Shown here one piece after another: positions 4,160-9,801 of a DNA stretch of 32,449 nucleotides. Below the pieces are notes generated by a model that was given only the letters and a program-made list of their open reading frames with translations, ran no database searches and was not told where the DNA came from. The stretch comes from a virus: the UHGV virus genome UHGV-1397781; one strand, given 5' to 3'. The translations under genes and the position numbers were made by a program. The first letter of the stretch is position 1. Every line of letters begins with the position of its first letter.

Positions 4160-4830
4160 TGCTCCCCAAATACAAAACCAATTTCAGCCAGTGCCTCGTC
4201 CATTTTTTCGATGAACTCCGGCACCATCTCGTCAAAACTCGCCATGTACTTTTCATTCCGCTCAATCACGACATAATGCAGGCCTTCACGCTTCATGCGC
4301 GGGTCATAGTTGGCAAAGTACCAGGCATCTTTTCGCGTCACCCACATGCTGTACTGCACCTGGGCCATGTAAGCCGACTTTATGGCCTCGAAACCACCGA
4401 GCCGGAACTTCATGAAATCCCGGGAGGTAAACGGGCATTTCAGCTCAAGGCCGTTGCCGTCACTGCATAAACCATCGGGAGAGCAGGCGGTGCGCATACT
4501 TTCGTCGCGATAGATGATCGGGGATTCAGTAACATTCACGCCGGAAGTAAACTCAAACAGGGCTCTGGCGTCATTCTCGTACTGTTTTCCCCAGGCCAGC
4601 GCCTTAGCGTTAACTTCCGGAGCCACACCGGTGCAAATCTCAGCCAGCAGGGTGTGAAAGTAGGACATTTTCATGTCAGGCCACTTTTTACCGGAGCGGG
4701 GTTTTGCTATCACATTGTGAACTTCTGAAGCCGTGATGACGCCGAGTCGTAATTTGTTCCACGCATCATCTCCCTGTTCGACAGCTCTCACGTCGATCCC
4801 GGTACGCTGCAGGATAATGTCCGGTGTCAT
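4150..4830 (-). CDS. exo: Lambda exonuclease (Red-alpha)
   Basis: 226-aa [27 protein letters not shown]... recognised as lambda Exo; ATGA overlap with the bet stop. Confidence 0.97.
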
Positions 4831-5612
4831 GCAGCCACCTTCTGCTCAGAGGCTTTCTGTTTCAGGAATCCAAGAGCTTTCACTGCTTCGGCCTGTGTCA
4901 GTTCTGACGATGCGCGAATGTCGCGGCGAAATATCTGGGAACAGAGCGGCAATAAGTCGTCATCCCATGTTTTATCCAGGGCAATCAGCAGAGTGTTAAT
5001 CTCCTGCATGGTTTCATCGTTAACCGGAGTGATGTCGCGTTCCGGCTGACGTTCTGCAGTGTATGCGGTATTTTCGACAATGCGCTCGGCTTCATCCTTG
5101 TCATAGATACCAGCAAATCCGAAGGCCAGACGGGCACACTGAATCATGGCTTTATGACGTAACATCCGTTTGGGATGCGACTGCCACGGCCCCGTGATTT
5201 CTCTGCCTTCGCGGGTTTTGAATGGTTCGCGGCGGCATTCATCCATCCACTCGGTAACGCAGATCGGATGATTACGGTCCTTGCGGTAAATCCGGCATGT
5301 GCAGGATTCATTGTCCTGCTCAAAGTCCATGCCATCAAACTGCTGGTTTTCATTGATGATACGGGACCAGCCATCAACGCCCACCACCGGAACGATGCCG
5401 TTCTGCTTATCAGGGAAGGCGTAAATTTCTTTCGTCCACGGATTAAGGCCGTACTGGTTGGCGACGATCAACAATGCGATGAACTGCGCATCGCTGGCAT
5501 CACCTTTAAATGCCGTCTGGCGAAGAGTGGTGATCAGTTCCTGTGGGTCGACAGAATCCATGCCGACACGTTCAGCCAGCTTCCCAGCCAGCGTTGCGAG
5601 TGCTGTACTCAT
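4827..5612 (-). CDS. bet: Bet single-strand annealing protein (Red-beta)
   Basis: 261-aa [51 protein letters not shown] recognised as lambda Bet. Confidence 0.97.
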
Positions 5613-6132: not shown

Positions 6133-6265
6133 TTTTTGGGACTCCTGGCTGATTAAGTATGTCGATAAGGCGTTTCCATCCGTCACGTAATTTACGGGTG
6201 ATTCGTTCAAGTAAAGATTCGGAAGGGCAGCCAGCAACAGGCCACCCTGCAATGGCATATTGCAT
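6101..6265 (-). CDS. cIII: cIII, inhibitor of FtsH-mediated cII degradation
   Basis: Not in the ORF track (under 60 aa). Manual reverse-complement translation from ATG 6263-6265 gives [54 protein letters not shown], stop at 6101-6103. Confidence 0.85.
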   Translation of the reverse strand: MQYAIAGWPVAGCPSESLLERITRKLRDGWKRLIDILNQPGVPKNGSNTYGYPD

Positions 6266-6337
6266 GGTGTGCTCCTTATTTATACATAACGAAAAACGCC
6301 TCGAGTGAAGCGTTATTGGTATGCGGTAACGCCGCGC

Positions 6338-6706: not shown

Positions 6707-6877
6707 CTATTCATATCCTCACAGATAAAAAATCGCCCTCATACTGGAGGGCAAAGAAGATTTCCAATAATCAGAACAAGTCGACTCCTGTTTAGTTACG
6801 AGCGACATTGCTCCGTGTATTCACTCGTTGGAATGAATACACAGTGCAGTGTTTATTCTGTTGTTTGCGTGAAAATG

Positions 6878-6896
6878 AAACCCGCCTGAGCGGGTT
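6878..6896 (-). terminator. Candidate terminator hairpin at the 3' end of the novel AT-rich gene
   Basis: aacccgc-ctga-gcgggtt perfect 7-bp stem overlapping the stop codon; minus-strand sequence after the stem is tcattttcacg. Confidence 0.4.
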
Positions 6897-7764
6897 ATGA
6901 CCACTTTTTGTTTGGATTTCGTTGGTGAGCGTGGTTTACAGGATTATTTGATATACCCCATAACTCTGACTCGCTTATCTCTACACGAGAGAAAGACCTG
7001 CTTTCTTTCAGTTCTTTTATAAACCTAGAACCTACGATGACATCTATTGTCCCAGAAAGTTCTTGTAAAAGATCTTTGTTTTTTCTGAGGAAGAAAACAT
7101 CTTCTTTATATTTAATTTTTACATAGAATTTATTCTGTATTTTTAATATATCAAAGCATGGCAGATATCTATATCCCTCATGCTTTCGCCACTGCTTAAC
7201 AATTATAACATCTCTTTCATTTACTGCATTAATCAGCCCAAGACCAAGTATAGGTATGAATATTCTATTGTCTGCCGAAAGCGTACAATTATTACCACCA
7301 GGCAAATATGTATAAATCATGTCGGAATTTTTATACGCATCAACGAATGCACGTAAGAATCGTACATATTTTTGCCATCCGTTTATACCAAATTTACCAT
7401 ATAAGTATTCTTTATTTGTTAGAAGAAAACTATTTGTATCAGGAGCCTTATCTACAGACCTGTCGATAAGATCTCCAACTACGTTTACAAAGTCAAAGAC
7501 AGAGTTTAATAAGAACAATTGTCTTTCAGTCGGGCGAATTTCAATTATGTAGCCTGGATGAAGACGATATTGCATCTGCTTACGAAGTATGCTGAACGCT
7601 TGGGTCCGGGCATCTGAAAGCAACTTCCTGTCGCCATCGCCGTGAGCATTGTTTCTAATAAAACTGATATAATTTGCTAATTTTTCAGCCTCTTTTTTGT
7701 GTTTTTTTCGCTCTGATGCCGAGTCTATTGGTTTTGGTATGGACTTGTAATCAATTTTCTTCAT
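6895..7764 (-). CDS. Hypothetical 289-aa protein, AT-rich cargo gene at the ral/sieB position; function unknown
   Basis: Long ORF with no lambda counterpart I recognise; start placed at MKKIDYK (ATG 7762-7764) with GAGGT Shine-Dalgarno 5 nt upstream; an alternative ATG at 7774-7776 overlaps the N stop (ATGA); composition visibly more AT-rich than flanking lambda genes. Confidence 0.65.
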   Translation of the reverse strand: MKKIDYKSIPKPIDSASERKKHKKEAEKLANYISFIRNNAHGDGDRKLLSDARTQAFSILRKQMQYRLHPGYIIEIRPTERQLFLLNSVFDFVNVVGDLIDRSVDKAPDTNSFLLTNKEYLYGKFGINGWQKYVRFLRAFVDAYKNSDMIYTYLPGGNNCTLSADNRIFIPILGLGLINAVNERDVIIVKQWRKHEGYRYLPCFDILKIQNKFYVKIKYKEDVFFLRKNKDLLQELSGTIDVIVGSRFIKELKESRSFSRVEISESELWGISNNPVNHAHQRNPNKKWS

Positions 7765-7772
7765 TACGTACC

Positions 7773-8096
7773 TCATGCCAATGGAATGGATTTCCCTTTA
7801 ACCTTTTGTCTTCCTTGACAAGTTATACCGAACTCACTTGGCTTGCTATACCAAACTCGATGATTCTTGCGCTCAATACGTTGCAGGTTGCTTTCAATCT
7901 GTTCGTGGTATTCAGCCAGCACCGTAAGGTCTATCGGATTCAGTGCGCTTTCTACTCGTGATTTCGGTTTGCGATTCAGCGAGAGAATAGGGCGGTTAAC
8001 TGGTTTTGCGCTTACCCCAACCAACAGGGGATTTGCTGCTTTCCATTGAGCCTGTTTCTCTGCGCGACGTTCGCGGCGGCGTGTTTGTGCATCCAT
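7773..8096 (-). CDS. N: Antitermination protein N
   Basis: Internal start MDAQTRRRERRAEKQAQWKAANPLLVGVSAKPVNRPILSLNRKPKSRVESALNPIDLTVLAEYH (ATG 8094-8096), recognised as lambda N. Confidence 0.92.
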   Translation of the reverse strand: MDAQTRRRERRAEKQAQWKAANPLLVGVSAKPVNRPILSLNRKPKSRVESALNPIDLTVLAEYHEQIESNLQRIERKNHRVWYSKPSEFGITCQGRQKVKGKSIPLA

Positions 8097-8254
8097 CTGG
8101 ATTCTCTTGTCAGTTAGCTTTGGTGGTGTGTGTGAGTCGTAGTCCTGAACGAAAACACCCCACGATTGGCTCATTTGCAGCTAATCCGGATTCGCACTTC
8201 CGGCCAATGCTTCGTTTCGTATCACACACCCCAAAGCCTTCTGCTTTGAATGCT

Positions 8255-8284
8255 GCCCTTCTTCAGGGCTTAATTTTTAAGAGC
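8255..8284 (-). promoter_or_regulatory. nutL (boxB hairpin 8255-8269, boxA-like 8276-8284)
   Basis: Minus strand reads ggctcttaaaaattaa-gccctgaagaagggc, matching lambda nutL boxA/boxB with one boxA mismatch. Confidence 0.85.
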
Positions 8285-8330
8285 CTCACCTTCAATGGTG
8301 GTTAGTGCGTCCTGCTGATGGCTTAAAATT

Positions 8331-8398
8331 ACAAGAAAGATTGTATGTTGTAAACAAGAAATATTGTAAAAATGGGCGTGAAAAACAAAATCCATTGT
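8331..8398 (-). promoter_or_regulatory. OL operator cluster of 434 type (OL1 8331-8344, OL2 8354-8367, OL3 8385-8398) with the pL promoter
   Basis: Three 14-bp ACAA-n6-TTGT operators: acaagaaagattgt, acaagaaatattgt, acaaaatccattgt. Confidence 0.8.
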
Positions 8399-8448
8399 TT
8401 TTAAACGGAAAATAGTTTGTTTTTTGGTTGTCGAAATTGAGGTGAGGA

Positions 8449-9801
<1,353 letters not shown>

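Follow-up and report, generated by a model that had tools for sequence, protein, structure and literature searches.

The virus genome UHGV-1397781, analysed here as a stretch of 32,449 nucleotides (the window, meaning that whole stretch), carries immediately downstream of a lambda-type antiterminator gene N an AT-rich gene encoding a protein of 289 amino acids, which ends in 14 residues (VNHAHQRNPNKKWS) that match positions 96-109 of the Nun protein of phage HK022 without a single difference. The reading that we favour, at roughly even chances, is that this protein is a modular arrest factor of the Nun type, equipped with a TnpB-like targeting head, which spares the transcription of its own phage and serves to exclude competitors. 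In this model the disordered C-terminal peptide would thread into the active-site cleft of the elongating E. coli RNA polymerase and block its translocation, and a structured body of about 220 residues, comprised of a basic helical hairpin and a TnpB/Cas12-like WED+REC module without RuvC, would substitute for the arginine-rich boxB-binding motif of Nun as the targeting head. The head would presumably bind a nucleic-acid feature of the target transcription complexes, either a nascent RNA structure or duplex DNA, as suggested by its predicted fold and by the isoelectric point of the protein (9.65). Early transcription of the phage itself might be spared through modification of the polymerase by N at a lambda-type nut site (or by the put RNA in HK022-type phages), together with a head that does not recognise lambda boxB, and the role of the protein would most likely be the exclusion of competing phages.

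The coding sequence and its Nun-type tail occupy the following positions:

6895..7764, minus strand: coding sequence of the 289-residue protein (stop codon 6895-6897), homologous to CPT_434_48 of phage 434 and to E. coli WP_001383906.1.

6898..6939, minus strand: Nun-type RNA-polymerase arrest peptide, residues 276-289, identical to HK022 Nun 96-109.

The identity between the tail and Nun (P18683; chain N of the cryo-electron microscopy structure PDB 6ALG) extends over 14 of 14 positions. A BLASTP comparison with Nun aligned the tail only, and PHROG 5632 (Nun-like transcription termination factor) matched residues 274-293 only, corresponding to profile positions 93-112. No part of Nun other than residues 87-109 is ordered in the elongation complex, and all its known arrest determinants are located there (Kang et al. 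2017, PMC5386594): R102 forms a pair with the carboxylate of the C-terminus, K106, K107 and W108 occupy a pocket flanked by the hybrid and the downstream DNA, and the N103A mutant is about as active as the wild type. Within the family described here, the tail residues V, N, H, A, H, R, K, K and W are invariant in all members, and the equivalents of Nun N97, H98, H100, R102, K106, K107 and W108 are invariant across five lineages that are 41-68% identical. The codons, on the other hand, have diverged. Seven of the 13 tail codons differ between the family loci L003 and L004, all of them synonymously, and between the window and the other lineages there are six to seven synonymous and three non-synonymous differences, the latter at the equivalents of Nun Q101, N103 and N105. 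This predominance of synonymous changes, combined with the invariant residues, points to purifying selection on the tail in this family, and tail identity and selection together suggest that the protein may have an arrest activity. Residues 247-289 (tail and linker) were predicted to be disordered by AlphaFold2, as would be expected of a threading peptide.

The identity with the arrest segment also makes a Nun-like jamming of elongation a likely mode of action, rather than that of a generic abortive-infection toxin. An earlier note on this DNA, which had missed the Nun tail, had put forward an abortive-infection or exclusion function; the slot, the foreign composition and the guess of exclusion cargo fit the present results, and a generic toxin is unlikely given the tail.

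The protein was modelled with AlphaFold2 from a 16-sequence alignment (predicted local distance difference test score, pLDDT, 74; predicted template modelling score, pTM, 0.70), with residues 5-220 confident, and ahead of the tail it is subdivided into three parts:

7561..7764, minus strand: basic N-terminal helical hairpin, residues 1-68 (helices 16-38 and 43-65; AlphaFold2 pLDDT 82-95; 17 lysines plus arginines versus 8 aspartates plus glutamates).

7099..7560, minus strand: core, residues 69-222, with a predicted TnpB/Cas12 WED-like fold and a REC helical insertion.

6940..7098, minus strand: residues 223-275, comprising a long helix (223-255) and, behind it, an acidic disordered linker, as delimited by the alignment and the AlphaFold2 model.

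The modelled core is composed of strand beta1 (72-77), four helices (80-145) and a beta-sheet (152-217) that includes helix 183-196, which corresponds to a WED beta-barrel with an inserted helical REC lobe. In the alignment, the N-terminal hairpin is found in phage-type members only and is missing from the BREX-type relatives described below, and the motif ELKESRSFSRVEIS within residues 223-275 is common to distant relatives. Cas12 proteins occupied the top four places in the Foldseek search. When the family profile was compared by hhalign with a profile of 67 TnpB N-terminal sequences, the two were collinear over 140 columns (query 67-222, TnpB 2-176) with a score of 27.1 (P=0.0032), against no more than 19.4 for 40 column shuffles and 11.0 for the reversed profile, a similarity that is marginal. 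At the level of prediction the WED+REC fold of the head is well supported, and common ancestry with TnpB is likely. RuvC, with its D-E-D triad, is missing, as the WED part is followed by only one helix and the disordered tail (residues 223-289); Pfam OrfB_IS605 matched neither the 289-residue protein nor the 26 family members. A zinc-ribbon/target-nucleic-acid-binding domain is likewise missing: Pfam OrfB_Zn_ribbon gave no match, and the sequence has no room for one. No enzymatic domain was found, in line with the failure of the earlier note to spot a catalytic motif by eye.

Two other candidates for the head were discarded. Comparison of the family profile with PDB sequences returned nothing meaningful, and hits to D-Ala-D-Ala ligase in the PDB sequence search (E ~0.08) were judged to be due to chance, neither fold search having backed them. 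A cryptic N/Nun-like arginine-rich motif at residues 17-32 (SERKKHKKEAEKLANY, compared with RRAEKQAQW of N) was rejected, the segment being lysine-rich instead; the by-eye resemblance (AEK..A.W/Y) loses its aromatic residue in homologs (Y32 replaced by C or V), and the segment lies within the confidently folded helical hairpin and was left unaligned by BLASTP and PHROG.

A profile search of 1.84 billion representatives retrieved 27 proteins. The distant relatives among them (210-470 amino acids) share residues ~70-270 with E-values from 1e-19 to 1e-4, keep the pre-tail motif EL..S..ySRvdF, and end in a different, strongly conserved peptide, ...V.GGLPSLGKRR. The GGLPSLGKRR proteins of Betaproteobacteria and metagenomes (P0011-P0039) measure 220-290 amino acids. 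The distant relative that was modelled is also predicted to be TnpB-like in fold. Two relatives sit between brxC and pglX of BREX operons, the neighbouring BrxA, BrxB, BrxC and PglX proteins being strongly matched by PADLOC (E=0 to 1e-73). On the metagenome contigs L007-L010 (gene at 7001-7831, 7001-7867 or 4390-5256) BrxA, BrxB and BrxC are followed by a TnpB-like protein of 276-288 amino acids with the GGLPSLGKRR end and by PglX, and then by two unknown genes (376 and 423 amino acids) and a 610-residue protein of the HSP70 family, which is an unusual composition for a BREX-like operon. In Paraburkholderia sp. EG287B (L051, 9001-11276) a relative of the GGLPSLGKRR type directly precedes a Pycsar effector (PycTM) and a nucleotide cyclase, in Dechloromonas (L048) the genes upstream of the relative carry MZB and UvrD-helicase domains, and other relatives are located near NYN, RelA-SpoT and PLD genes. 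The head family is thus recurrent in defence neighbourhoods, and the peptide at its C-terminus can be exchanged. In Paraburkholderia ferrariae (L053) only the tail sequence GGLPSLGK was matched, outside any substantial open reading frame (ORF), and this locus was dropped. Speculatively, and with only a small chance of being right, a nuclease-less head derived from TnpB might deliver 'plug' peptides into host machines more generally, namely the Nun tail in phages (a programmable arrest, directed by sequence or structure and conceivably RNA-guided) and GGLPSLGKRR in bacteria, where the protein would be an accessory of BREX and other defence islands, with Nun being one member of a wider class of head-plus-tail proteins.

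The location of the phage gene in the pL early operon, either beside pL and put or right after N, is that of the Nun family. In the window and phage 434, and in loci L006, L003 and L046, the gene starts 0-12 nucleotides after a lambda-type N; the arginine-rich motif of N in these N-linked lineages reads ...RRR..RAEKQ..WK.ANPLLVG, and lambda-type boxB hairpins are present. Loci L004 and L047 possess no N, and the gene is the first one after a cI-like repressor, in the slot of nun; their intergenic region displays 74% identity to the HK022 cI-nun intergenic region and is nearly identical to it just downstream of pL, at putL (position taken from PMC9378689). True Nun directly follows an N of the 21/933W type in Kapi1 (L012), PA28 and Lambdavirus PDP110P1. 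The last of these was chosen as a case that could have disproved a rule, namely that proteins with a Nun tail do not act on the nut type of the phage that encodes them, and the rule survived. In PA28 (L013, KP682381; 2192-2545, plus strand) the annotated hypothetical protein of 45 amino acids is the 3' part of a full-length nun ORF (~110-117 amino acids, with the SRDRRRIARWEKRIAY motif) just downstream of the 933W-type N, and in PDP110P1 (L055, 2201-2545) the N-then-nun arrangement is unannotated.

L003 additionally contains, directly downstream of the long gene, an uncalled ORF of 102 amino acids (9037-9345, plus strand) that combines a different arginine-rich motif (KGRRRALRMQQRRD; GQKTSKGRRRALRMQQRRD) with a Nun tail (VVNHAHQRRPNKKWS), so that two Nun-tailed genes stand in tandem behind a lambda-type N. 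Together with true Nun and the long gene, this ORF gives three kinds of head on one tail. The C-terminus of lambda N enters the same cavity of the polymerase beside the upstream DNA and then follows the hybrid, and polymerase that has been modified by put is able to pass sites of Nun-dependent termination (PMC8632103). It is plausible that N or put confers self-protection.

The following features define the expression of the gene in the window:

7765..7776, minus strand: four additional in-frame codons from an upstream ATG, containing the Shine-Dalgarno sequence (GAGG) of the 7764 start.

7773..8096, minus strand: lambda-type antiterminator N, 107 amino acids, directly upstream of and overlapping the 289-residue gene; proposed source of self-protection.

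8255..8269, minus strand: lambda-type boxB hairpin (GCCCTGAAGAAGGGC) belonging to nutL, for which phage 434 has an annotation at the equivalent site.

6879..6896, minus strand: terminator-like hairpin on the stop codon, predicted to be the first terminator-like site of the pL transcript.

6733..6754, minus strand: second terminator-like hairpin; phage 434 has a terminator annotated at the equivalent site.

The neighbourhood is that of a lambdoid prophage with a 434 immunity region, in the order int-xis...exo-bet-gam-kil-cIII-ea10-(289-residue gene)-N-(pL)-hex-cI(434)-cro-cII-O-P; in lambda the interval from N to ea10 is occupied by sieB, orf28 and ral. The ORF (6895..7776, minus strand) is open for 293 codons when counted from an ATG that shares bases with the stop codon of N (ATGA), and a second ATG at 7764, with GAGG 5-8 nucleotides upstream, yields the 289-residue protein. 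All aligned homologs start at the position of the second ATG, where the phage 434 record also has its ribosome-binding site and start annotated. As the Shine-Dalgarno sequence of the 7764 start lies inside the four extra codons that overlap the N stop, translational coupling with N is likely. The gene has a G+C content of 0.352 versus 0.506 for the whole window, and the profile falls to 0.32-0.35 over the gene versus 0.45-0.53 in exo-bet-gam and N, with only this gene dipping so low. The chance of 293 stop-free codons at the composition of the gene is ~4e-10 (arithmetic from base frequencies); by its length at this composition and its conservation in other phages, at 41-68% identity, the ORF is beyond chance. 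The lambda-like backbone with a ral/sieB slot between ea10 and N, the AT-richness of the gene, its own Shine-Dalgarno sequence, the alternative ATG and the hairpin over the stop codon had all been described in the earlier note and were recovered here.

The earlier note was probably mistaken in supposing that the gene is transcribed under N antitermination. On the coding strand, no terminator is predicted to separate the gene from pL (Rho-dependent sites are possible), so that it should be immediate-early, sharing its transcript with N and having no need for antitermination. A sigma-70 promoter of its own was considered and rejected, since promoter-like matches occur at chance level (5 seen versus 5.1 expected) and the best one covers the start codon. 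From the end of hex to N (8097-8448, minus strand) no intrinsic terminator is predicted on the coding strand either, so that read-through from pRM into N and the Nun-tailed gene is possible in a lysogen; this could give expression in the prophage state, by analogy with HK022, where such expression of nun is known. The ORF between cI and pL (8449-8925, minus strand) corresponds to hex of 434, for which the annotation gives a repressor-protection protein and a start that is disputed. Its length is given discordantly as 103 (RefSeq), 134 (434 record) or 158 amino acids (raw ORF), and when read from an internal methionine its start resembles a signal peptide, which would be odd for a cytoplasmic protector of a repressor. 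At 6220-6278 (minus strand) Rfam matched the lambda cIII thermoregulator (RF01804, 88.5 bits), as expected upstream of cIII.

The gene is present in 93 of 5,426 complete E. coli genomes, always on the chromosome, and the flanking N/ea10 DNA in ~2,270 genomes, from which it follows that the slot is variable and this cargo rare. The protein family is tiny, with five clusters among 5.8 billion proteins and members at 68%, 49%, 42% and ~37% identity. Decayed copies include seven viral contigs from IMG/VR (L039-L045), four of which are frameshifted to a 226-residue ORF and three of which retain only residues 106-289; a rearranged copy (P0009, 96 amino acids) joins the N-terminal 23 residues of Bet to residues ~217-289 of the Nun-tailed protein.

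Linkage to N would also suit a host shut-off factor that is made with N after induction or infection and arrests host transcription, with N- or put-modified complexes being immune and the head raising general affinity. This explanation, although unlikely, survives best among the alternatives to a targeted exclusion factor. It agrees with a gene that shares the transcript of N ahead of the first terminator and whose translation is probably coupled to that of N, with the ability of Nun alone at high concentration to arrest any elongation complex (non-specific dissociation constant ~300 nM) and its toxicity when overproduced (PMC5386594), and with the occupation or modification of the same polymerase region by N and put. 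However, a conserved structured head of 220 residues exceeds the needs of unspecific arrest, the relatives of the head are found in bacterial defence islands and not in lytic modules, and the closely related phage lambda, in which ral and sieB take the place of this gene, grows well. It is much less probable still that the protein regulates the pL transcription of its own phage, as a brake with a Nun tail by which early leftward transcription would be limited or timed, for instance through opposition to N at certain sites. The tight linkage to N in four lineages and the terminator hairpin on the stop codon of the gene itself would be compatible with such a brake, but the gene is missing from lambda and from most lambdoid prophages with the same N (93 versus ~2,270 E. 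coli genomes), is frequently decayed, and also occurs in N-less phages of the put type.

The origin of the tail has to be considered separately, because its DNA is shared with HK022:

6725..6940, minus strand: DNA block shared with the 3' end of HK022 nun and the DNA downstream of it, 94-96% identity; split by IS903 in HK022.

Similarity to HK022 begins at the first tail codon (6940), with none upstream, and the block comprising tail and terminator is also found in Kapi1 and PA28; it is thus at the same time a recombination joint common to lambdoid phages. In HK022 (L011, 1613-2669) IS903 is inserted in the conserved block downstream of nun, the window having the uninterrupted version, and a 9-bp overlap of the two HK022-window alignments fits a target duplication. 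A mosaic joint that falls precisely on the codon with which the tail starts, the DNA beyond it being 96% identical to HK022, and the existence of body relatives with an entirely different tail could be taken to mean that the tail is a functionless by-product of recombination and that the body alone acts, in DNA- or RNA-binding exclusion, in anti-restriction, or as an anti-BREX decoy, the phage copy then being a mimic of the BREX-embedded relatives. We consider this improbable, as lineages that share 41-49% identity retain the tail while using different codons for it, with synonymous changes in excess, which is not the pattern of a neutral relic.

The least probable explanation is that of an RNA-guided arrest factor, in which the TnpB-like head would bind a guide RNA and direct the Nun tail to complementary DNA or RNA: the predicted fold is related to that of RNA-guided TnpB and Cas12, and nuclease-dead TnpB/Cas12f derivatives that control transcription are known (PMC12259091), but RuvC and the zinc ribbon, which help to hold the omega RNA in TnpB, are missing, no conserved non-coding region lies beside the gene (the gaps in L004 and L007-L010 measure 23-46 nucleotides), and the region downstream of the gene in the window is shared with plain nun and gave no Rfam match. 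A search for an adjacent guide-like RNA ended with the candidate being rejected, since Rfam matched only the cIII thermoregulator near the gene and no intergenic region is conserved across loci.

Several observations weigh against a Nun-type exclusion factor with a TnpB-like head. Within the arrest segment, conservation does not extend to the positions that correspond to Nun H93 and R94 (NN in the window protein), and the R94A substitution strongly weakens the binding of Nun (PMC5386594). The 96% identity to HK022 of the tail and downstream DNA implies a recent recombinational exchange of the tail in the E. coli lineage. The gene is located in an early lytic operon with no standout promoter of its own, and classical exclusion needs expression in the lysogen. 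About 7 of 34 copies on viral contigs are frameshifted or truncated, which shows the gene to be dispensable, and PADLOC-DB 2.0 has no match for the window protein or for three distant relatives. With regard to the head, structure prediction and a fold search, both recommended in the earlier note, gave a predicted TnpB/Cas12-like WED+REC fold and a Foldseek result with a best E-value of 0.04 and nothing at E<=0.001; the hhalign probability for TnpB is only 10%, the Pfam TnpB models matched none of 26 family members, leaving only scattered Pfam matches at chance level, and the fold assignment depends on AlphaFold models (16-sequence alignment) with pLDDT values of 74 and 68.

The connection with Nun is not new, and the gene is therefore no unknown. 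The window protein shares 96.9% identity with CPT_434_48 of phage 434 (OL657226), which the depositors of that record named 'Nun C-terminal peptide-containing protein' with reference to a BLASTp resemblance to Nun of HK022. The phage 434 genome announcement makes no mention of CPT_434_48 (PMC9119081), no paper on the 289-residue protein was found in the literature searched, and the RefSeq annotation in E. coli is 'hypothetical protein'. The profile searches that the earlier note had called for gave a full-length match to PHROG 12139 (unknown function, E=3e-203) in addition to the tail-only match to PHROG 5632, and no model of Pfam, NCBIfam or PADLOC matched. Given the GenBank record, the gene was not fully uncharacterised, as which the earlier note had described it. 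According to the literature searched, the new elements are the nuclease-less TnpB/Cas12-like head, the relatives with another C-terminal peptide in BREX operons and beside Pycsar, the selection on the tail across divergent lineages, the equivalence with the nun slot, and the rule of pairing with the type of antitermination.

Nun has so far been treated as a one-off, a small peptide-like protein of HK022 directed against lambda, and the same polymerase-jamming peptide is kept under selection here on a different and much larger head. If the targeted exclusion reading is true, arrest by a threading peptide would be a modular strategy, in which heads are swapped to pick targets and the phage's own N- or put-modified polymerase is spared, and there would be a concrete lead for an unexplained gene embedded in BREX operons. 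The reading is testable because phage 434 encodes the protein and because Nun assays, Nun-resistant rpoC alleles and a cryo-electron microscopy framework exist.

Compared with HK022 Nun, the 289-residue protein has in common its place in the leftward early operon near pL (with the copies of L004 and L047 in the nun slot after putL, and with shared downstream DNA), the disordered acidic linker that precedes the tail, and the C-terminal arrest segment of the Nun family with the equivalents of H98, K106/K107 and W108 (14 of 14 residues). It differs from Nun, which has 109-112 amino acids and is largely disordered, in its length and in having residues 5-220 confidently folded by prediction, in lacking an arginine-rich boxB-binding motif and conserved equivalents of H93/R94, and in coexisting with a lambda-type N, which true Nun never does in the phages examined. 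With lambda SieB, Ral, RexAB and other N-proximal cargo it shares the interval and the AT-rich character of a moron; it has no sequence or predicted structural relationship to these proteins, which act by other mechanisms. The GGLPSLGKRR relatives share the head and the pre-tail motif with the phage protein, but their terminal peptide differs, they have no N-terminal hairpin, and they are chromosomal, being located between brxC and pglX or by other defence genes and not in phage early operons.

TldR repressors and dCas12f-sigmaE have retained both the RuvC fold and a guide RNA, and their action is that of a roadblock or consists in the recruitment of a sigma factor. Like these nuclease-dead TnpB/Cas12 derivatives, the phage protein would represent a TnpB-type recognition module repurposed to control RNA polymerase. 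Unlike type V effectors of the TnpB/Cas12 group (ISDra2 TnpB, PDB 8H1J; RdCas12n, 9UDI), it lacks RuvC, the zinc-ribbon/TNB domain, transposon ends and any recognisable guide-RNA locus. In contrast to TldR and dCas12f-sigmaE, RuvC is gone altogether and the effector would be a polymerase-threading peptide, which, if true, would add a new fate to the exaptation of TnpB, namely the loss of RuvC accompanied by the gain of an effector peptide.

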